Shown one piece after another: positions 30,968 through 40,084 of a stretch of DNA of 45,270 nucleotides (within the stretch, counting starts at the first letter, position 1; every line of letters starts with the position of its first letter). The translations under genes were made by a program, and so were the position numbers. Under the pieces are notes generated by a model that worked only from the letters and a program-made list of their open reading frames with translations, was not told the origin of the DNA and did no database searches. The DNA is taken from the sequence record OQ589852.1. The stretch is one strand, 5' to 3'. Source of the stretch: Escherichia phage Ioannina.

Positions 30968-31246
30968 TTATGCGACCAATTCCGCAACCAATAAATCAGC
31001 GTCGTGAATGTTGTCGATTACGCGAACGTCGGCCCCGCGCTTCGCCATGCGCTCATGTTCACGTACCTGGTGCGGCTTCGGCTTACCACCGGGGCGCTTC
31101 ACTTCAACGAATACGACTCTGCCGTTGATGATGATAATCAGGTCGGGAGCGCCGGTACGCCCTTCCCATGCCATTTTACGGCAGAATCCACCTGCCTCTT
31201 TTACCTCTTTCATCAGGTGACTTTGCATCTTGCCCTCAGGAGTCAT
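30968..31246 (-). CDS. VRR-NUC domain nuclease
   Basis: 92 aa; GAPDLIIIINGRVVFVEVKRPGG is a PD-(D/E)xK core of VRR-NUC type. Confidence 0.65.
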   Translation of the reverse strand: MTPEGKMQSHLMKEVKEAGGFCRKMAWEGRTGAPDLIIIINGRVVFVEVKRPGGKPKPHQVREHERMAKRGADVRVIDNIHDADLLVAELVA

Positions 31247-33537
31247 TATTTTCTATACCTGTACATGATGTCGCCTTCAGCGGCGAGCGGGAAGCCCTTA
31301 GCCCACACCGGCAGATCGCACATTAACCGGCATAACTCTTCCGTCGTGTAATCGTCCGTGTCCGGCACTTCGGTGATTAATTCATCGTGCACCGACAGGA
31401 CGATTTCGTATCCCGCCGCTTCGACGCCAGGCATTGCCCATGCGAGAATATCGCGGCACAGCGCCTGTACAATGTTCTCTGTCAGTTTGCCGCCGTAGGT
31501 GTACTGGAAGCCCCACTGGCGCGTCGTCTGATTCTCGCCCTGATATTTAATGCGGGTGTTGGTTTTCTTCTTGCCGGTGTCTTCGTCAACTTCAGTAGTT
31601 ACTGACAGCGCAATGCCAGGATAGCTCATGATACGACCCGACGGCAACTCGACTTTCAGCCACCAGCCGGGCGCGTCTGGGTCGTCCCGCTCATCGTCAA
31701 ACGTCGGGTCGTGCTTAGCCTTCGTGCGCATGATTTTAAGCGCCTGTTTGCCGTCTGGACGCACGTTAGCACCGGCCCAGTATGATTTGCCCGGATTGCG
31801 GATTGCGCACAGCACAGCGTCTTCCAGTTCGGCCCAGAATCTAACCGTTTCCGGGTGGGACTCACGCCACATACGCTTGATCGCATCGCAGGTAAGCCAC
31901 ACGTTCTTCGGCAGGATGTAAGTCGGTCGCTCGTCTTTCTTGCCAGGCTTCGGCGGACGCTTCGCTTCATTAATCCTCGCGTACTCGTACCCGCGTTTCG
32001 CTGCGGCCCATATGTGATCCGGGAACGTGCCTTTCATCACGTCTGCCATCGCATACAGGTCAAGACCCAGGTTTTTGGCAAACTGCAAGAACGCCGCAAC
32101 GCCACCACCATAGCCGAGGCCCAATTCACAGGCCTTACCGATCTGGCGAAGGTCTTTGCGGTTGGCCTTGATATAATCCGGGTCGAGGCCGAACATCTTA
32201 CCGGCAGTTTCGCAATAAATATCGCGTCCCGCCTTAAAGACCATCAACGCAGTTTTCTCGCCCGCAATCCAGGCAAGGCCGCGTCCTTCCACGTTGGAGT
32301 AGTCCGCTACAACAAACTTCTTACCCTTAGCCGGGATAATGCAGCCGCGTACGGTCGATGCTGTCAGCTTAGATATGTCGTACGCCCAGTGTGCGGTCCC
32401 GCGTAATAGGGAATTGATGCCGTTGGTTAGCATGTGCGACCGGACCCAAAACGACACGTCGCTTTCACCATCACGGCGCTTGATCTTGCCTTCGTGGTCG
32501 TCGCTGTACTCGCCACGCGCCAGGTTTTGAGGCTGAAAACTTTTACCGGCCCAGCGCAATGTTCGTTTAGCACCACCATACTGAAGACAACCACGGCGGC
32601 GACCGTCAGACGACAGACCGTTAACGAGCGGATTGTATTTGGTCGACGCCGTTGATGACGCACCGAGGCGCATTTCAATCAGAACTTTGCCCTCGTCCGG
32701 GAAGTCCGGGTCTTCCAGCAAATCATTCAGTGTGGATTTCTGCGCGTTATGGATAGTGAAAGCTGGCGCAATATCTCGTAACAACGGCAGGAAATCATTT
32801 CCGGTCAGCTTACCGCCAAACTTCTCCATCGCTTCTTCTTTCAGTTCTTCCTTGTGCGCTTCAACGGCCTTGATGGCGGCGTAGGCCAGTTCGGTGTCCA
32901 CGTTGAAGCCGCGGTCATTGATCAACTGGTCAATTGCCAGTATCTGGTCTTCCTTCGGAGTATTACCCCAATCCGGGATACGCCAGTACACTTCACGCAT
33001 CGCGATAATATCGAAGCGTGCATACTTGAGGAATTTGGCCCACTCTTCCGGGTGAGTCTCGCGAGTGTAGCGACGGACTTTGTAAGTCTTCGGCGTTGGC
33101 TTACAGAATCGCTTAATCAGCGCCTTGCCCGCTTTATCTTTCGCATGTTCAGCGTCAACGCCCAATACCTGGCATTGCATGTCAAGGCTGCCGGGGAGGG
33201 CGTGGCGGAAGGCCATAATCATGGTGTCTTCGATCTGGCAAACCGGCAGGTCAATACCCCACTTCTCACGGATAACCAGGCGGTCAAACAGGAGGCCGTT
33301 AGCCATTACGATTTTTGCTTTCTTGCGGACTACCGCACGCAATGCCTTACGCAGTTCACTCGGCATCTTCGGCGATTCAGTAGCGTCCCACGTCTGAACA
33401 CGGCCTTCATCAATGGCGTAGGTGCAGATCATGATTTCCGTGGTTGGGTGTTCTGCATACGCGTATGCGCCGACCTTCTTCAGATCAACGCCGCTAAACG
33501 TTTCGGTATCGAGGAATAGTCGTTCGAAGTTCATTGT
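31246..33537 (-). CDS. DNA polymerase, family A, with 3'-5' exonuclease domain
   Basis: Exo I motif FLDTETFSG; Pol motif A DYSNVEGR; motif B RQIGKACELGLGYGGG; motif C SVHDEL; start at MNFERLF with RBS. Confidence 0.9.
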   Translation of the reverse strand, partial: TMNFERLFLDTETFSGVDLKKVGAYAYAEHPTTEIMICTYAIDEGRVQTWDATESPKMPSELRKALRAVVRKKAKIVMANGLLFDRLVIREKWGIDLPVCQIEDTMIMAFRHALPGSLDMQCQVLGVDAEHAKDKAGKALIKRFCKPTPKTYKVRRYTRETHPEEWAKFLKYARFDIIAMREVYWRIPDWGNTPKEDQILAIDQLINDRGFNVDTELAYAAIKAVEAHKEELKEEAMEKFGGKLTGNDFLPLLRDIAPAFTIHNAQKSTLNDLLEDPDFPDEGKVLIEMRLGASSTASTKYNPLVNGLSSDGRRRGCLQYGGAKRTLRWAGKSFQPQNLARGEYSDDHEGKIKRRDGESDVSFWVRSHMLTNGINSLLRGTAHWAYDISKLTASTVRGCIIPAKGKKFVVADYSNVEGRGLAWIAGEKTALMVFKAGRDIYCETAGKMFGLDPDYIKANRKDLRQIGKACELGLGYGGGVAAFLQFAKNLGLDLYAMADVMKGTFPDHIWAAAKRGYEYARINEAKRPPKPGKKDERPTYILPKNVWLTCDAIKRMWRESHPETVRFWAELEDAVLCAIRNPGKSYWAGANVRPDGKQALKIMRTKAKHDPTFDDERDDPDAPGWWLKVELPSGRIMSYPGIALSVTTEVDEDTGKKKTNTRIKYQGENQTTRQWGFQYTYGGKLTENIVQALCRDILAWAMPGVEAAGYEIVLSVHDELITEVPDTDDYTTEELCRLMCDLPVWAKGFPLAAEGDIMYRYRK

Positions 33538-33664
33538 TTCACCCTTACCACGGCCTCGGCGTTCTGTTTCACTTCGGCAACCGTGAAGTATTCGCCCAGG
33601 AATTTGGACCACACGCGCATTCCCGGTTTCACATCTTTAGCTTTAATTCTCATTACATTGTCCT

Positions 33665-33690
33665 ATGAAAAAGCCCGCATAAAGCGGGCT
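33665..33690 (-). terminator. minus-strand rho-independent terminator after the SSB gene
   Basis: AGCCCGC-TTTATG-CGGGCTT followed by TTTT on the minus strand, just after the frame-B stop. Confidence 0.6.
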
Positions 33691-33709
33691 TGAGTAGTGG
33701 GCTTTGCCC

Positions 33710-34482
33710 TTAGCGGCGTCGACGTTTACGTGGTGCTTCGTCTTCGTCATCATCGTCATCTTCATCGCGTGACTTGCGACGTTTACGCGGCTTATCGTCT
33801 TCATCGTCGTCATCTTCATCACGGCGGCGCTTAGACTTGCGCGGTTTTTCATCTTCATCATCGTCGTCACGACGTTTTGACTTTTTGGATTTACGCGGTG
33901 CTTCGTCTTCGTCATCATCCAGGTCGTCGTCAGAGCAATATGCACCGCGCCGCCACCGAAGGAATCCCCATCATCACGGAAGCGCATACCCAGCAGACCA
34001 CAGCCTAAGCCTTTGCCGTTGGTATTGTTCCAGGCCCAAATATCTAAGGAAACGTTGCAATAGCAACCGGAATAGATTTCCTTCCCTTCGATTTCGTCGC
34101 CGTCGATGGTCAGACCCTGCTCCGTCTGCTTCTCGCCTTCGGAAGTCTGGATGATCGGCTGTTTGAATGATTTAGCGTTGATATACAGCTTACCTTCAAA
34201 CTCTTCCGTTACTTCTTCACGCTCATCACCATCTCGAACGGCACATTCTTTCGAATCCTGCGCGTAGTGGCGGTCCATCCACTTATCGGCGTTCTTCTCA
34301 GACTTCAGTTTTTCGGTGAGCACTGCGCGTGCCGCCGCTTCCACTTTGTCCACCTGCGGATCTTCTTTATCAAGAATAATCACCGCACGATATGCCGGTT
34401 TTTGTCCATCCTGTTTAGGGGTATCACGCTCCCAAATTTTCAGGAAGCATACACGTACATTTTTCAGGTTGACTTTAGCCAT
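33710..34482 (-). CDS. ssDNA-binding protein with tandem acidic/basic C-terminal repeats; two halves in different frames
   Basis: N-terminal domain from MAKVNLKNVRVCF (GAGGA RBS) is open in one frame; the C-terminal tail (four DDDDEDE-PRK-KRR units) is open only in the -1 frame and ends at 33710 ahead of the terminator. Confidence 0.5.
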
Positions 34483-34578
34483 TTTCCAATTCCTCATTTC
34501 ACATGTATCGGGGTTATTAGAAGCCACCCCGTCCGGCTTGGTTGCTAATGTACTTGGTTGCGTTTCCGCGGTCAAGTG

Positions 34579-34812
34579 TTATTTATCAAAAAGTTTTAAA
34601 ATCAGGTCGAGATATTTGTGCAGCCACACCAGTGGAGGGCGGTGCACGTTGTTTTCCATCCAGTTCAAACAGGCTTCGTTATAGCCGTCGTCCCATAAGC
34701 GGGATGGGTGGCGAATCATCCAGGCCAGCGCCAGCAGACCGCCGCAGGTATGTACTACGAATCCCAGCGCCGCAAGCGGCAGCACCATAATCATTGCCAG
34801 AATCTTATTCAT
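34579..34812 (-). CDS. small membrane protein
   Basis: About 77 aa from MNKILAMIMVLPLAALGF; two predicted TM helices. Confidence 0.4.
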   Translation of the reverse strand: MNKILAMIMVLPLAALGFVVHTCGGLLALAWMIRHPSRLWDDGYNEACLNWMENNVHRPPLVWLHKYLDLILKLFDK

Positions 34813-36235
34813 CGCCCAAATCCTCGTCTCTTGCTTCTTGCCATTCCGGGCGCGGGTCGTCAACTGGTGCCAGGACCGGTTTCGCCGGCGCACGCGTGAT
34901 TTTATCTTGCAGTTTCGCCCACACTTTCGGTTTCTCATCCTTCAGCACCTTCTCGGCATCAGTAGGGCTGATTAATGATTCCTTGTACATCAGGTCGCGC
35001 TTGATCCGGGCCGTTGTGAATACTGCGATAACTTCGCTTTCATCCTTCCACTTACGCGCACCTTCACGACCAGCTACCAGCTTCAGGCCCAGCGCTTCGC
35101 CGTCACCGGCTAACACTGCTTTGAATACGGCAGCCTCGATCGCTTTGATGTGCTGGCGCATGGTTTCCAGGCCGTCGTAAGCCTTCTTCAGTTCTTCCGT
35201 GGTCATAGCACCGGCTGGCGCTTCTTTCTTTCCACGCTTCGCACGTCGGGCAGCTTTCCGGGCTTCGAGGTCCATGTTCAGGTCGTGGTTTTTGCATTCT
35301 TCCTCGGCGGCAATGCTTACATCGTCGCCCAGGTCTTCGTCGGTTGCCGTTGGTGGCGTCATTGTGTCGATGGCGGCTTTAGCGCGGGCACTACATTGGT
35401 CCGCAAATCGACACCACTGACACGCATCGGCGCTCGGACGGAAGTCTGCACGGGTGAGATTCTTCTTACCCTTAGCGAGGGCATCCAGGGCGGCTACTGC
35501 GCGTTTTGCTGCGTACTTGGCGAAGATTTCCAGTGCTTCCACCGAAATATCCCACTCCGACGCCCCGCCGCAATACGGCTGGAATATGACCAGGCGCACG
35601 GTTGTTATGTCGTACATCTTTTGCAGCTTGCGCAGCAGTCCGAGCGCATACAGCATAAGCTGTTTGTTCTCTTTCGCCTCGACCTTATGGCGTCCGGTCT
35701 TCAGGTCGCCCACAATGAGCATGTACGTGCCGTCGGTCTTCTTCATTACCATAACCATATCGGCAGTACCGAAGGTCTTGATCGCTTCGCCGTCAATCTC
35801 GTAGCCTTTGTGCAGGACGCGAGTCAGATCCGCGCGCATCTCAAGCTGGACAAACTCGGCAACTTCAAGCAGCGGTCGCCAGTGGTCGATGTACGCGTCG
35901 CACTGTTTCACCATGTCGTCAGTTACCAGGATGGCGTCCTTAGGTGCTTTCGCTGCCGCTTTAACTGGTCCTTTACCCTGATTTTCGACGTAGCACCCTT
36001 TATATGTCTTCGCCGTGATGTGGTCTTCGCCTGCAATGATGCGGTTTAGTACCACTTCAGATACGGTGTGCATACTCGTACCGTTGATCGCGGCTTGCCC
36101 GGATTCGTTCGGAATACCTTTCTCCACCACCAGGGCGGCGGGACACCCCATCCATTTTTTAGCGCCGGATGGGCCGAGTAATGAGTGTTCTGTATTACTG
36201 CCGGATTGCGTCTTGCGCTTCGCTTTGATAGCCAT
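34805..36235 (-). CDS. Cas4-like PD-(D/E)xK exonuclease with Fe-S Cys cluster and long C-terminal extension
   Basis: N-terminal Cys plus GDLKTGRHK and QLMLYALGL core motifs and C-x2-C-x5-C (CQWCRFADQC); about 200 aa charged C-terminal region of unknown role. Confidence 0.65.
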   Translation of the reverse strand: MAIKAKRKTQSGSNTEHSLLGPSGAKKWMGCPAALVVEKGIPNESGQAAINGTSMHTVSEVVLNRIIAGEDHITAKTYKGCYVENQGKGPVKAAAKAPKDAILVTDDMVKQCDAYIDHWRPLLEVAEFVQLEMRADLTRVLHKGYEIDGEAIKTFGTADMVMVMKKTDGTYMLIVGDLKTGRHKVEAKENKQLMLYALGLLRKLQKMYDITTVRLVIFQPYCGGASEWDISVEALEIFAKYAAKRAVAALDALAKGKKNLTRADFRPSADACQWCRFADQCSARAKAAIDTMTPPTATDEDLGDDVSIAAEEECKNHDLNMDLEARKAARRAKRGKKEAPAGAMTTEELKKAYDGLETMRQHIKAIEAAVFKAVLAGDGEALGLKLVAGREGARKWKDESEVIAVFTTARIKRDLMYKESLISPTDAEKVLKDEKPKVWAKLQDKITRAPAKPVLAPVDDPRPEWQEARDEDLGDE

Positions 36236-36438
36236 TATTCGACCCTCGTAAATTGAGCAATATAATAATCATGCTTAATTCCTGCTTTCGCCGCGGCGTT
36301 ATTCATTGTCGCTGCCAGTTCTTTCGCTTGCATCCAGCAACAATTCCAGTTCTGATTCATAATTATTTCCGGCTGTTCGTCGCCGGTGTTACGGCAGCGA
36401 AATAAAATAAAGAAAATACTCATTATGGCGTCTCCCAA
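36235..36438 (-). CDS. hypothetical small protein
   Basis: 67 aa ORF in early operon; no motif. Confidence 0.3.
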   Translation of the reverse strand: MGDAIMSIFFILFRCRNTGDEQPEIIMNQNWNCCWMQAKELAATMNNAAAKAGIKHDYYIAQFTRVE

Positions 36439-36674
36439 CGGTCAATAGTTTTTGCTTCAGACCCAACTGCAAAGCGAACATATTCGTGATTCGAGTCCGC
36501 CCATAAATAAAAGTCTGGATTAGCGAAGGTCGTGCGTTTAATTTGTGCCGGTGTTTCCCGCTTCTTACTAATTACGGCAACGCGGGATTGAAAGGGGCCG
36601 GTGCGCTCGAATAGCCAGTAGTACGGGCGCTGGTCGCGCGAGTCCACCGCTTCAATTAATGTGAATCGTGCCAT
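36423..36674 (-). CDS. hypothetical protein
   Basis: 83 aa; second gene of the leftward early operon. Confidence 0.35.
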   Translation of the reverse strand: MARFTLIEAVDSRDQRPYYWLFERTGPFQSRVAVISKKRETPAQIKRTTFANPDFYLWADSNHEYVRFAVGSEAKTIDRWETP

Positions 36675-36689
36675 TGTCTCGTCTCTTTA

Positions 36690-36712
36690 AAAATAGGCCC
36701 GCAGAATAGCGG
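36690..36712 (-). terminator. minus-strand attenuator hairpin after first early gene
   Basis: GGCCCGC-TATTCT-GCGGGCC followed by TATTTTT on the minus strand. Confidence 0.5.
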
Positions 36713-36722
36713 GCCGGGTATA

Positions 36723-37225
36723 TTAGTCTTCCAGTTCGAAATAGGTTTCGACTATTTCTTTCAGTTCGGTGTGGAAGTCTTCAACGTCGTCATCTTCCAG
36801 CTTAGCCACAGTCTTGATTTCGAACGATTCCAGCAGGTCGTCAAATTCGTCGTTCGCGTCGTCATCGTCACCGCCTGCAATGATTGCCGCGTATTGTGCA
36901 ATTTCATCGCGCATTTCTTTCAGTGGATCGGCGTCTTTCTTAGCCTTCACTTTGCCCTTGCCTTTGGCTGGCTTTTCTTCCGGTTCGTCTTCGTCGTCGT
37001 CATCTTCTACGACTTCTTTTTTCGCCTTGCCCTTAGCCGTGGACTTCTTAGCAGGTTTCTTATCTTCCTGCTCGTTATCTTCGTCTTTGGCTTCTTCTTT
37101 CTTAGCCTTAGACGGTTTCTTATCTTCCTGCTTACCAACGGCAGCGCCCTGGGTTTCGTAATGTTTAGCGATGGTTTCCAGTGCTACTACGCCGCGAGTA
37201 ATCAGATTCAGGATTTGCTCAAACA
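36723..37225 (-). CDS. first early protein, highly charged low-complexity with very acidic C-terminus
   Basis: About 167 aa from MFEQILNL; lysine-rich blocks alternating with DDDDEDE-type blocks; promoter-proximal in the early operon. Confidence 0.45.
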
Positions 37226-37269
37226 TGGTGTGTCTCCGTTTAGTTAAAAGTGAATGTCGTTTCGACGAG

Positions 37270-37305
37270 GTGAATAATAGATTGGTTGCAGGATGGGTGT
37301 CAACA
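37270..37305 (-). promoter_or_regulatory. leftward early promoter (TTGACA-N18-TATTAT)
   Basis: Consensus -35 hexamer on the minus strand, with a TGCAACCAAT copy in the spacer. Confidence 0.6.
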
Positions 37306-37414
37306 ACTAATTTAAAAAAAAAATCCCCGAAGCAAAACGCAACGGGGATAACCATAAGAGACAATGAGACTGGTTTTATTATTACACGCGCGCGCACCCG
37401 TTTCAATATACAAA

Positions 37415-37477: not shown

Positions 37478-37807
37478 ATGAATATCAACGAAGCAATTGA
37501 AGTGTTATCTAATGCAATCCGCGGCGAGACGGGTAAATCCTGGTATTACACGAATGCGGTGGGTACTCTGCTATTTGAGGTGTCCCGATTATCGCGTGTC
37601 GAGAAAGAGCTTACCGCCAAACTTGAATTGCTGAACGGTACGGCGGCGAGCAAGCTGCAAAAGCATAACGAAGAAATGGAAGAATACAAAAAGCAGGTTA
37701 TCAGACTGCGTGAAGAAGGTAAGTCCTGGGCGATGATTGCCGAGTTAACGGGTATTAATCAGAGCACCGTTCGTTCTTGGGTCCGCAATACTAAAACTGC
37801 TAAGTAA
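37478..37807 (+). CDS. HTH DNA-binding regulator
   Basis: 109 aa; C-terminal helix-turn-helix (SWAMIAELTGINQSTVRSWV); first gene of the rightward operon beside the divergent promoters. Confidence 0.6.
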   Translation: MNINEAIEVLSNAIRGETGKSWYYTNAVGTLLFEVSRLSRVEKELTAKLELLNGTAASKLQKHNEEMEEYKKQVIRLREEGKSWAMIAELTGINQSTVRSWVRNTKTAK

Positions 37808-37819
37808 GGAATTGAGACA

Positions 37820-40084
37820 ATGAGAAATATAGAATTTGCGATCACACCCCCCGCTAAGAAAGGCGAATCTGCGGTAGCTCATAACCAGTCCATGACTACC
37901 GCCGAGTTTTTCGAATTTATCCAGGATGCACCGGTAGTGTCGTCAGTTTGCATTAACGGTACTGAAGATAAAAAAGAATATGCGCGACGTAAGCGTAAAG
38001 GCGACGGCATTGTGGCTACAACCGCCGATGGCACGCGTAAAAAGACTGGCGTGGTTAGCCGCTCGATCCTGTTCTTCGACCTGGACCGTGCTGACAACCG
38101 CACACTTACCCGCTGCCGCAGGGCTTTCCGCAAGTCCGGCCTGGAATATGTCTACCACACCACCACCGGCGACCGCCACCCGTTGAAAGACGGCAAGCGC
38201 TGTGTGCGTTTCCTGGTGCTGACAAACAAGCCAGTTCCGGCGGAAGACTTGGGTCGCGCGCAGGCTGCACTGCTTGAGCAACTGGGTCTTACCGACGCGG
38301 GCTTTGATGACTGCTCGAAAGACACAAACCGCCTTATGTACCTGCCCCACCAGCAGGCTAAGGTCGAGTGTCATGAGGGTGAACGCGCTAACGTGCGTCG
38401 TCTGCTTCGCCTGGCTGACAAGATGGGTATTGAGCAGGAAACGTTTCGCCGTGAACTGGTGCAGGGCGACGACGAGCAGATGAACGGCATCCTCGACTGG
38501 TGTTTCCAGGCTGGTTTTGAGCCGTTACCATCCGGGCGCGGTTATGAAGTACCGTGCCCAAACGAACATCTGCACTCTGGTGAAGGGTCTACCGCTATCA
38601 TGCTTAAGGATGGCGAGATTCGTTTCAAATGTATGCACACCGGCAACGGATGCTGTTCTGAACTGAACAAACACCAACACCTGGCGCTGCGAATGATTGG
38701 TATCCCGGATATTTATAACGTGGAACCTCACAACATGTCGCGCAAACAGATCTCGGCAATCCTGCCCGGACTGGACGATGAAGAAGTGGACGCGCAGTAT
38801 GAGCACATGGTCGATCTGGTTGGCGAAGGTGAGGATTATGCGTCCTGTACTGACGCAGACCTGGAAGACGAACCAACGGCACTGTTCTCTAAACACGACC
38901 CGATCATCGAAGGTCTGATTAACTTCAAATCGACCTGGTACGCAGCGGGTGAGTCGAACATTGGTAAGTCCTTCTTCGTCCTGGGTCAGATGGCTGCCGT
39001 TGCCGCTGGCATCCCGTTCGGCGGCGCTAAGGTCGTCCAGTCCCATTGCTTCTACTTCGATGCGGAAGGTGGCGAGGCGTCCCACCAGCGTAAAGAAGCG
39101 TTGCAGATTAAATATGAGCACGACCTGGACAAGCTGCACATTATCGACCTTCAGGCACGCGGCTGGGATATTACGAGCAAATCCGGCCTGCGTGAAGTCA
39201 TCAGCTTTATCAACCGCACAGCGGATGGGGAACCGGTCGGCCTGGTGGCGTTCGACTCCCTTAACCAGACCGTGGCCCTGCGCTCGGCAGATGCCAAACC
39301 GTTCGACGAGAACAACGCAAGCGATATGGGTGAGATTGTCAAAGCGCTGAAGTCCATTGCGGAAAACACAGGCGGCAGTGCGGGCGTCATCCACCACCCG
39401 GCGAAGGGTGCAAACGGCAGCCGATCCCCGCGTGGGTCCGGTGCGCTACATGGCGCGGTGGATTCTGCATTCTTCCTGGAACAGCCAGACGAGAATCAGC
39501 CAGGCCAGCTTAACCTCTATCATGAGAAAGCCCGTAACGGCGTGAAACAGGGTCCGCGCGGCTTCGTGCTACTGAAGTGCAAAGTGTCCATTAACGAGCG
39601 CAAGTCCGACACGTTCGAAGCGCACCAGTCCACTAACCCTGGTCCAGACTTCGGCGATGTGGTTGCCGGTTGGGACGTCAAGCCAATCCAGGCCACCCCG
39701 CGTGATGAGACTCTGTACCTTGTACCGGTAGCTCTGGTCCCGTTCGCTATCGAACAGGCGAAGGCCGCGGGCAAGCAGGCTGTTAAGGAAGAAAACCCCG
39801 CCGGTCCGCGCAATGAAAAAGAGAAAGTGCTTTACGCAGCGCTCGAAGCGTTGATGGAAGAGAATCCGGGACACCATGGCTTCAGCAAATCGGCAATCGT
39901 CCGCAAAGCCGGACTGGCGAAAGGTGGCACATCGACGAAGCCAATAGACGATATGCGTGAGCGCGGAATAATCGGCTTTTACAAAGACCCGGACACCGGG
40001 GCCATTTACGGGTCGTCGAATCTGGTTATCAATTCACAAATACCTATGCAATTGACGGCGACGGATGATGATTTGAAAGATTAA
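37820..40084 (+). CDS. DNA primase / replicative helicase (bifunctional)
   Basis: 754 aa; N-terminal primase-like domain (FFDLDRADN), Cys/His cluster (CPNEHLHSGEG…CMHTGNGCC), C-terminal RecA/DnaB-like ATPase with Walker A GESNIGKS. Confidence 0.75.
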   Translation: MRNIEFAITPPAKKGESAVAHNQSMTTAEFFEFIQDAPVVSSVCINGTEDKKEYARRKRKGDGIVATTADGTRKKTGVVSRSILFFDLDRADNRTLTRCRRAFRKSGLEYVYHTTTGDRHPLKDGKRCVRFLVLTNKPVPAEDLGRAQAALLEQLGLTDAGFDDCSKDTNRLMYLPHQQAKVECHEGERANVRRLLRLADKMGIEQETFRRELVQGDDEQMNGILDWCFQAGFEPLPSGRGYEVPCPNEHLHSGEGSTAIMLKDGEIRFKCMHTGNGCCSELNKHQHLALRMIGIPDIYNVEPHNMSRKQISAILPGLDDEEVDAQYEHMVDLVGEGEDYASCTDADLEDEPTALFSKHDPIIEGLINFKSTWYAAGESNIGKSFFVLGQMAAVAAGIPFGGAKVVQSHCFYFDAEGGEASHQRKEALQIKYEHDLDKLHIIDLQARGWDITSKSGLREVISFINRTADGEPVGLVAFDSLNQTVALRSADAKPFDENNASDMGEIVKALKSIAENTGGSAGVIHHPAKGANGSRSPRGSGALHGAVDSAFFLEQPDENQPGQLNLYHEKARNGVKQGPRGFVLLKCKVSINERKSDTFEAHQSTNPGPDFGDVVAGWDVKPIQATPRDETLYLVPVALVPFAIEQAKAAGKQAVKEENPAGPRNEKEKVLYAALEALMEENPGHHGFSKSAIVRKAGLAKGGTSTKPIDDMRERGIIGFYKDPDTGAIYGSSNLVINSQIPMQLTATDDDLKD

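Follow-up and report, generated by a model that had tools for sequence, protein, structure and literature searches.

In phage T7, gp4 and gp2.5 dock on the polymerase through their acidic tails, and in bacteria the acidic C-terminal tail of SSB, the protein that binds single-stranded DNA, serves electrostatic docking in the replisome. The P phosphoprotein of paramyxoviruses and rhabdoviruses is an abundant tether between polymerase and nucleoprotein; it comprises an oligomerization helix, a disordered linker, and a C-terminal three-helix X domain. Inhibitors of host nucleases occur beside recombination genes: lambda gam adjoins bet/exo, and T7 5.9 adjoins gene 6. Wild-type lambda, a Gam producer, has no Chi sites. 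We discuss how these systems compare with a gene for a highly acidic protein in Escherichia phage Ioannina (sequence record OQ589852.1, positions 36723 to 37226, minus strand). The whole stretch of DNA analyzed, 45,270 nucleotides, is referred to as the window.

We infer that the acidic protein is a flexible hub, or tether, within the phage's own replication–recombination machinery, a reading held tentatively and at somewhat short of an even chance. It is drawn from strict synteny, core-gene behavior, a helix–linker–bundle plan, abundance, and a network of charged tails in the same gene module.

A three-part protein

The coding sequence (CDS) runs from an ATG at 37226..37224 to a TAA at 36725..36723 and comprises 167 codons plus the stop. 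A first-pass annotation made from the sequence had recognized the gene and had set its upper coordinate 1 base short, at 37225. The protein holds 27 Glu, 24 Asp, 27 Lys, and 2 Arg (51 acidic and 29 basic residues), with a computed net charge of -22 and isoelectric point (pI) of 4.48. Lys-rich blocks alternate with Asp/Glu-rich ones in residues 31-105 (23 Lys/Arg, 24 Asp/Glu), as the first-pass annotation had seen. It had also put the acidic residues of the last 65 amino acids at about 20; the count is 25, with 5 basic residues and a segment pI of 4.05. Structure prediction and comparison of homologues divide the protein into three parts:

36723..37226, minus strand: CDS, 167 amino acids plus stop, phrog_3127 member (open reading frame [ORF], profile match, homologues, ratio of nonsynonymous to synonymous substitution rates [dN/dS])
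37143..37226, minus strand: N-terminal amphipathic helix, residues 1-28, the most widely conserved module (AlphaFold2 helix 2-28, predicted local distance difference test score [pLDDT] 83; alignment)
36927..37142, minus strand: disordered polyampholyte linker, residues 29-100, of hypervariable length (pLDDT below 50 for residues ~26-94; rich in indels)
36726..36926, minus strand: predicted folded acidic three-helix bundle, residues 101-167, net charge about -21 (AlphaFold2)

An alignment of 27 homologues is near-invariant over residues 1-30 and again in a C-terminal segment from about residue 96. The segment between them is rich in Lys, Glu, Asp, Ala, and Pro, and its indels account for total lengths that vary from 115 to 178 amino acids. 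At the DNA level, Tandem Repeats Finder reports merely a weak 6-nucleotide repeat in the linker. The helices of the bundle are predicted at residues 101-118, 122-134, and 145-163 with pLDDT 91-94, and the distant homologue P0110, modeled with AlphaFold2 from a diverse alignment, follows the same helix–linker–bundle plan. Neither model places the N-terminal helix against the bundle with confidence (predicted template modeling scores 0.40 and 0.49). Since the acidic C-terminus is a predicted folded domain, only the linker is of low complexity; the earlier description of a low-complexity protein holds for this central segment and fails for the conserved bundle.

Comparison of 34 diverse members separates constant from variable features. 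The linker, 27 to 100 amino acids long, is highly charged, yet its charges balance (net charge per residue -0.11 to +0.10). In all 34 members the C-domain is net negative, from -3 to -21 with a mean of -13, and the Dhillonvirus proteins form the extreme. The extreme acidity is a Dhillonvirus-specific exaggeration and not a family-defining trait. Conserved acidic positions cluster in the motif GD-DD--D-FDDLL and around D145, and R106 is conserved throughout (34/34). Three members, P0109, P0114, and P0116, carry two tandem C-domains, and 79 of 81 family members end in a conserved aromatic–acidic tail (KYYEIED, KYFEEE, TYFELED).

Family, selection, and presence in infected cells

The protein matches the profile phrog_3127, labeled "unknown function," over its full length (E 2.5e-51; residues 1-167 align with profile positions 1-178 of 178). 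Apart from this match, scans against Pfam, NCBIfam, and PHROGs return low-complexity noise alone, and a sequence profile search of the PDB matches nothing beyond a designed protein and UTP23. We also looked for homology to known structural or replication proteins, which the first-pass annotation would have counted against its own proposal, and found none. The family is already catalogued yet uncharacterized, and its architecture resembles known kinds of tethers and mimics and belongs to none of them.

The gene region shares 99% identity with Dhillonvirus LM40P1 and ~82% with many other Dhillonvirus genomes, and it matches 153 phage records. Homologous proteins form 105 clusters, nearly all from 44-45-kb contigs. 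A profile search of 1.8 billion representative proteins returns 46 clusters at the 50% identity level, including a spurious one; P0113 (2539 amino acids, 18 matched stretches) was rejected as a spurious repeat-protein match. Searches with tblastn add ~485 further phage records, from Jerseyvirus, Kagunavirus, Shemara-like phages, phiEap-2, and Edwardsiella eiAU (Guernseyvirinae-type). Between Dhillonviruses, the C-terminal domain shows dN of 0.02-0.07 against dS of 0.23 to more than 1.8 (dN/dS ~0.03-0.1), and over the N-terminal 30 codons dN lies well below dS in five of six comparisons. By these estimates, the gene is under strong purifying selection.

The family protein is translated and abundant, since the homologue in phage EE09, CDS56, is one of just four phage proteins that mass spectrometry picked up in infected cultures (at 25 min; PMC10673088). 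Another of the four is CDS61, a 30.7-kDa replication-module protein (PMC10673088), which from its gene order and mass is taken to be the SSB homologue.

Among structure matches, Foldseek links the protein to UniProt Q9T1Z8, the Salmonella phage MB78 "13.88 kDa late protein" (E 1.6e-3), and the same name is used for the syntenic gene in many Jerseyvirus and Kagunavirus records. The label "late" fits poorly with a gene that belongs to the replication module and follows a sigma-70-type promoter, and its source is not traceable in the accessible literature.

A core gene of the replication–recombination module

The leftward operon of the window begins with the acidic-protein gene and continues with two small ORFs, a DUF2800/PD-(D/E)XK exonuclease, a further small ORF, an Enc34/gp2.5-like SSB, a family A DNA polymerase (Pol A), a helicase, and a methyltransferase. 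A helix-turn-helix (HTH) protein and, after it, a primase-helicase open the divergent operon. The genes on which the comparison of loci turns are:

34805..36235, minus strand: DUF2800/PD-(D/E)XK (Cas4-like) exonuclease (Pfam PF10926, E 1.5e-69)
33643..34575, minus strand: ORF for an Enc34/gp2.5-like SSB/annealing protein; the annotated homologue starts ~32 codons in (profile and annotation comparison)
31246..33612, minus strand: family A DNA polymerase, same operon (annotation of window ORFs)
37820..40084, plus strand: primase-helicase, divergently transcribed (annotation of window ORFs)

We assembled 81 loci that carry the family gene, 72 of them from IMG/VR; downstream DNA was sufficient in 74. 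In all 74, the DUF2800 nuclease lies 3' of the family gene on the same strand, at a distance of 42-1269 bp. An SSB follows downstream in 69 loci and Pol A in 66. The upstream neighbor is always the primase-helicase, divergent in 27 of 75 loci and on the same strand in 48. Five distant metagenomic homologues keep the association: each lies 0-4 small genes upstream of a DUF2800 nuclease. The gene may also sit deep within its operon, as at locus L006, where it is seventh. Taken across loci, the conserved property is membership in the replication–recombination module, not promoter proximity and not extreme acidity.

The N-terminal helix extends beyond these phages. In Achromobacter phage phiAxp-2 (Casjensviridae), gp4 (L083 2539..2934) is encoded directly before the exonuclease gene and shares the helix (LLALIERGVVALETIA; hhalign probability 96.6%); beyond the helix it has a T/G/K-rich linker and a different, barely acidic C-domain. 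Between the E. coli and Achromobacter phages, 12 of 16 helix residues are conserved, whereas the adjoining nuclease is only 26% identical. We rejected gp71 of the Chi-phage type (Salmonella phage SeWh-1, L084 2147..2563) as a further member: its architecture and position are similar, and homology is undetectable (hhalign probability 0.8%).

Charged tails in the module

Other products of the module also carry charged termini. In relatives, the SSB tail starts with DDL(D/E/G)DD and consists of one to four repeats of an acidic block and then a basic one; it ends Arg-rich in 65 of 69 loci. The linker of the acidic protein shares this "blocky" charge style. The resemblance to the SSB tail, pointed out in the first-pass annotation, is real, but in the window the tail can be read only in a shifted frame, because the SSB ORF (33643..34575, minus strand) is frameshifted relative to phage rolling near a G-run at ~33790-33800 (FGGGGGAYCSDDD… versus FGGGAVHIALTTTW…). 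The alternative frame encodes the expected tail, with four acidic-then-basic block repeats ending in RKRRRR. The frameshift is either a homopolymer sequencing error or genuine.

The primase-helicase and the DUF2800 nuclease have in common the extreme C-terminal motif (S/T)-(D/E)-(D/E)-D-L-(D/E). Within their last 9 residues, 68 of the 75 primase-helicases and 68 of the 74 nucleases carry the pattern [DE][DEGSA]DL, against a background at the same loci of 0/66 polymerases and 1/2424 other ORFs. The motif looks like a shared replisome docking motif. By analogy with T7, the replication module appears to be wired by charged tails.

A proposed tether within the replication machinery

On the predicted structures, the protein has two folded modules on a flexible linker, and its gene is co-conserved with replisome genes, as would suit a hub. 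The module that it would serve comprises the primase-helicase, the Cas4-like DUF2800 exonuclease, the gp2.5/Enc34-like SSB, and Pol A. The N-terminal helix would oligomerize or anchor to a conserved replisome component. The acidic bundle would bind by charge to segments rich in Lys/Arg, most obviously the Arg-rich blocks with which the SSB tail ends. In this manner, the protein could keep SSB, exonuclease, and/or primase-helicase assembled where forks or recombination ends lie.

The described systems resemble this arrangement in part. As in T7 and with bacterial SSB, charged termini occur in the module: the primase-helicase and the nuclease end in short acidic motifs, and the SSB tail is charged. 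In T7 gp2.5 and gp4 and in bacterial SSB, however, the acidity lies in tails, whereas here it lies in the predicted folded three-helix domain of a separate protein; moreover, the SSB tail of the module has an Arg-rich end in place of an acidic tip. The P phosphoprotein has the same order of modules and a generic three-helix bundle; this is an architectural analogy only, between viruses of different type, with no homology.

Several points weigh against a tether. Its docking steps are inferred. Host-nuclease inhibitors such as lambda gam and T7 5.9 lie beside recombination genes just as typically, and high abundance also fits a stoichiometric inhibitor. Comparison with solved or characterized structures and families gives no informative match, and the fold is a generic three-helix bundle. 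Finally, C-domain charge does not significantly track the number of basic residues in the SSB tail among 9 clade representatives (Spearman rho -0.28, p = 0.47); across 68 loci, which are not independent, rho is -0.33.

A further idea, which we consider a long shot, is that the protein and the SSB form an electrostatic condensate, a phage "replication factory," in which the acidic protein would act as a P-like organizer and the C-terminal (S/T)-(D/E)-(D/E)-D-L-(D/E) motifs would recruit clients. It is suggested by the blocky acid/base disordered segments of both proteins and by their place among the most abundant phage proteins.

Possible roles in inhibition, host takeover, or anti-restriction

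The main rival to a tether, although unlikely, is a Gam- or gp5.9-like inhibitor of RecBCD or another host nuclease, in which the acidic bundle would imitate DNA and shield linear intermediates of replication and recombination. The gene is, like those of lambda Gam and T7 gp5.9, one for an acidic helical protein beside a recombination exonuclease and an SSB/annealase, and its place just upstream of the exonuclease and SSB genes is invariant (74/74 loci). The very high density of negative charge (25 of 65 residues) on a helical domain and the abundance in infected cells suit such an inhibitor as well, and the window holds no other credible RecBCD inhibitor, the neighbor called "Gam" in relatives being an HTH protein. 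P2 OLD, a system that responds to RecBCD inhibitors (Gam, gp5.9) or to loss of recB, is reported to be a robust defense against Dhillonvirus phages, with its triggers placed at recombination loci (2026 preprint, 10.64898/2026.07.10.737580). In the BASEL data, on the other hand, Bas14-16 undergo little or no restriction by Old (efficiency of plating 0.07-1.75).

The Chi sites of the window speak against an inhibitor of RecBCD. Chi (GCTGGTGG) occurs at 9 sites (3062, 5328, 7535, 8217, 14299, 22087, 31660, 38347, and 39082), against 1.65 +/- 1.3 expected from dinucleotide shuffling and 3.4 +/- 1.7 from synonymous-codon shuffling, where 9 sites were reached in 1 of 300 shuffles. It is the commonest of 168 octamers of the same composition. 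This enrichment suggests that RecBCD stays active on the phage DNA. The enrichment and the tripartite tether architecture both set the locus apart from lambda Gam and T7 gp5.9, and searches of Pfam, PDB profiles, and structures reveal no sequence or fold likeness to Gam, gp5.9, or Abc2. Nor is acidity a constant: some family members are weakly acidic (net -3 to -8), and in phiAxp-2 the N-terminal helix is retained next to a C-domain of little acidity.

Rather unlikely, too, is another form of host takeover, in which the bundle would mimic nucleic acid and sequester a host DNA- or RNA-binding protein (H-NS or other nucleoid proteins, RNA polymerase, or a defense sensor) while the N-terminal helix oligomerizes. 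Charge, abundance, and a promoter for the host RNA polymerase would suit this role, and the N-terminal helix, better conserved (12/16) than the nuclease (26%), fits a very conserved host target. The gene is nevertheless strictly linked to the replication module and not to variable early or accessory regions; the degree of acidity is not conserved, and structure searches reveal no likeness to known mimics.

A function directed at the phage's own DUF2800 exonuclease is distinctly improbable. The protein would then resemble an immunity protein, with its acidic domain covering the DNA-binding surface until the enzyme is needed or localized. Acidic helical character fits such a regulator, and the gene often lies 42-55 bp from the nuclease gene, even in rearranged operons (L006, L007, L025, L036). 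In Dhillonvirus, however, two small genes and a terminator intervene, and proteomics indicates that the protein is produced far in excess.

The first-pass annotation had proposed an anti-restriction or host-takeover protein, with the acidic DNA mimic T7 Ocr as its example; we regard an Ocr- or ArdA-like mimic, made first after infection against type I (and other) restriction-modification or BREX, as highly improbable, because the position in the replication module is conserved and because phages that carry the gene are restricted. The resemblance that prompted the idea is genuine in part. Like T7 Ocr (gp0.3) and ArdA, the protein is small, very acidic, and helical, with a high density of acidic residues, and its gene comes first after an early promoter in Dhillonvirus; its homologue is also abundant in infected cells. 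It departs from both in its long disordered linker and its free-standing N-terminal helix; Pfam, PDB profile, and structure searches find no sequence or fold match to Ocr or ArdA; and in most relatives (48/75 loci) the gene is not promoter-proximal, since the primase-helicase gene precedes it on the same strand.

Dhillonvirus phages are sensitive to type I and type II restriction-modification relative to Queuovirinae (PMC8594841). PaulFeyerabend (Bas15), which carries the gene together with one EcoKI and one EcoCFT_I site, plates at ~0.8 on EcoKI, ~0.01 on type I EcoCFT_I (a ~100-fold restriction), ~2e-4 on EcoRI, and below 1e-6 on EcoRV; the values for type III systems are ~5e-6 (EcoCFT_II) and 5e-6 to 2e-4 (EcoPI) (BASEL S1 Data). 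TheodorHerzl and GeorgBuechner behave similarly on type II and type III systems, and TheodorHerzl has no type I sites (BASEL). Across Bas14-16, restriction amounts to 30- to 5000-fold for EcoRI and to ~300-fold or more for EcoRV and for type III systems. The window contains no EcoKI site (AACN6GTGC) against 8.3 +/- 3.0 expected, in agreement with the 0-1 type I sites of the BASEL Dhillonviruses; this depletion implies escape through site avoidance, not through an inhibitor. Restricted carriers, avoided EcoKI sites, the lack of a fold match, and a core place in the replication module thus leave little room for the earlier proposal.

Identity with either of two small Dhillonvirus proteins of described defense role, both formerly without a known function, was considered and rejected. 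The anti-Tmn protein (SMS22 ORF35) is a different gene, as the SM_S22 homologue of the acidic protein is CDS0050 (P0074). Anti-Tmn is accessory and absent from some Dhillonviruses, and it has a helical N-domain, a 12-residue linker, and a C-domain with a three-stranded beta-sheet (PMC11846954); the acidic protein, in contrast, has an all-alpha model, and its gene is found in ~153 Dhillonvirus records. Ksap1, a Dhillonvirus protein with a role in defense, is set apart by its published description. The RAZR trigger and the SECphi18 loci of escape from Retron-Eco8 and Borvo map to portal, SSB, and polymerase genes and not to the acidic-protein gene.

Significance

The family is a core, uncharacterized component of replication and recombination in several hundred enterobacterial siphoviruses (Dhillonvirus; Guernseyvirinae, including Jerseyvirus and Kagunavirus), many of which are under development for phage therapy and biocontrol. 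Its function would fill a gap in a T7-like replisome (Pol A, gp2.5-like SSB, fused primase-helicase) with different charged-tail contacts. If inhibition of RecBCD were true, the family would be a new class of inhibitor and a likely trigger of OLD- and retron-type guard systems. For annotation, the unsupported "Ocr-like" label is dropped, and the names "Gam," for the HTH neighbor, and "13.88 kDa late protein" are misleading in public records. The protein offers a well-defined experimental target in widely used phages.

Expression signals and small neighboring genes

The gene is bracketed by signals of its own:

37274..37303, minus strand: sigma-70-type promoter TTGACA-18-TATTAT (11/12 consensus matches, best site in a 10.5-kb scan)
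37234..37237, minus strand: Shine-Dalgarno sequence GGAG, 7 nucleotides 5' of the ATG (read from sequence; conserved in alignment)
36686..36715, minus strand: intrinsic terminator GGCCCGC-loop-GCGGGCC with T-run, immediately 3' of the stop (scan and RNA fold)

The first-pass annotation had placed the gene first after a leftward TTGACA promoter, and this is borne out: the promoter is the same in four Dhillonviruses (the window, rolling, EE09, and PaulFeyerabend) despite ~82% identity of the flanks. The terminator hairpin (RNA fold -17.2 kcal/mol, z -4.1) is kept in all four, and the Shine-Dalgarno sequence and start codon are likewise kept in rolling, EE09, and PaulFeyerabend. The 5' leader of EE09 and PaulFeyerabend carries an insertion of ~150 nucleotides, owing to which their annotated proteins are falsely extended to 229-232 amino acids. 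The bracket of promoter and terminator fits large-scale production of the protein.

Three small genes lie around it:

36423..36674 and 36235..36438, minus strand: two small conserved ORFs (phrog_4965 and phrog_9934) between the acidic-protein gene and the nuclease
37478..37807, plus strand: HTH gene, 109 amino acids (matches helix-turn-helix families only: HTH_23, Sigma70_r4_2)

The two minus-strand ORFs are candidates, as alternative carriers, for any host-directed function encoded here. The homologue of the HTH gene is labeled "DNA recombination nuclease inhibitor gamma," "transposase," or "resolvase" in relatives; judged by its family matches, the "Gam" label is spurious, and the gene probably regulates the divergent promoter region.

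At locus L004, a gene for an AcrIF11-like ADP-ribosyltransferase (PF26151; distant relative; L004 6718..7173, also L005 551..1006) stands first after the divergent promoter region, and the family gene is fourth in the operon. The promoter-proximal slot of this operon can therefore hold anti-defense genes.

Just 5' of the main promoter, on the minus strand at 37315..37406, lies a second promoter-like site, TTGAAA-17-(TG)AATAAT, followed by a ~55-nucleotide segment that terminates in a hairpin and T10 (-18.5 kcal/mol, z -4.5). Rfam has no match for this small-RNA-like element. All of its parts are kept in the four Dhillonviruses, relatives annotate a 36-amino-acid ORF there, and the element is a candidate small RNA or transcribed origin element.

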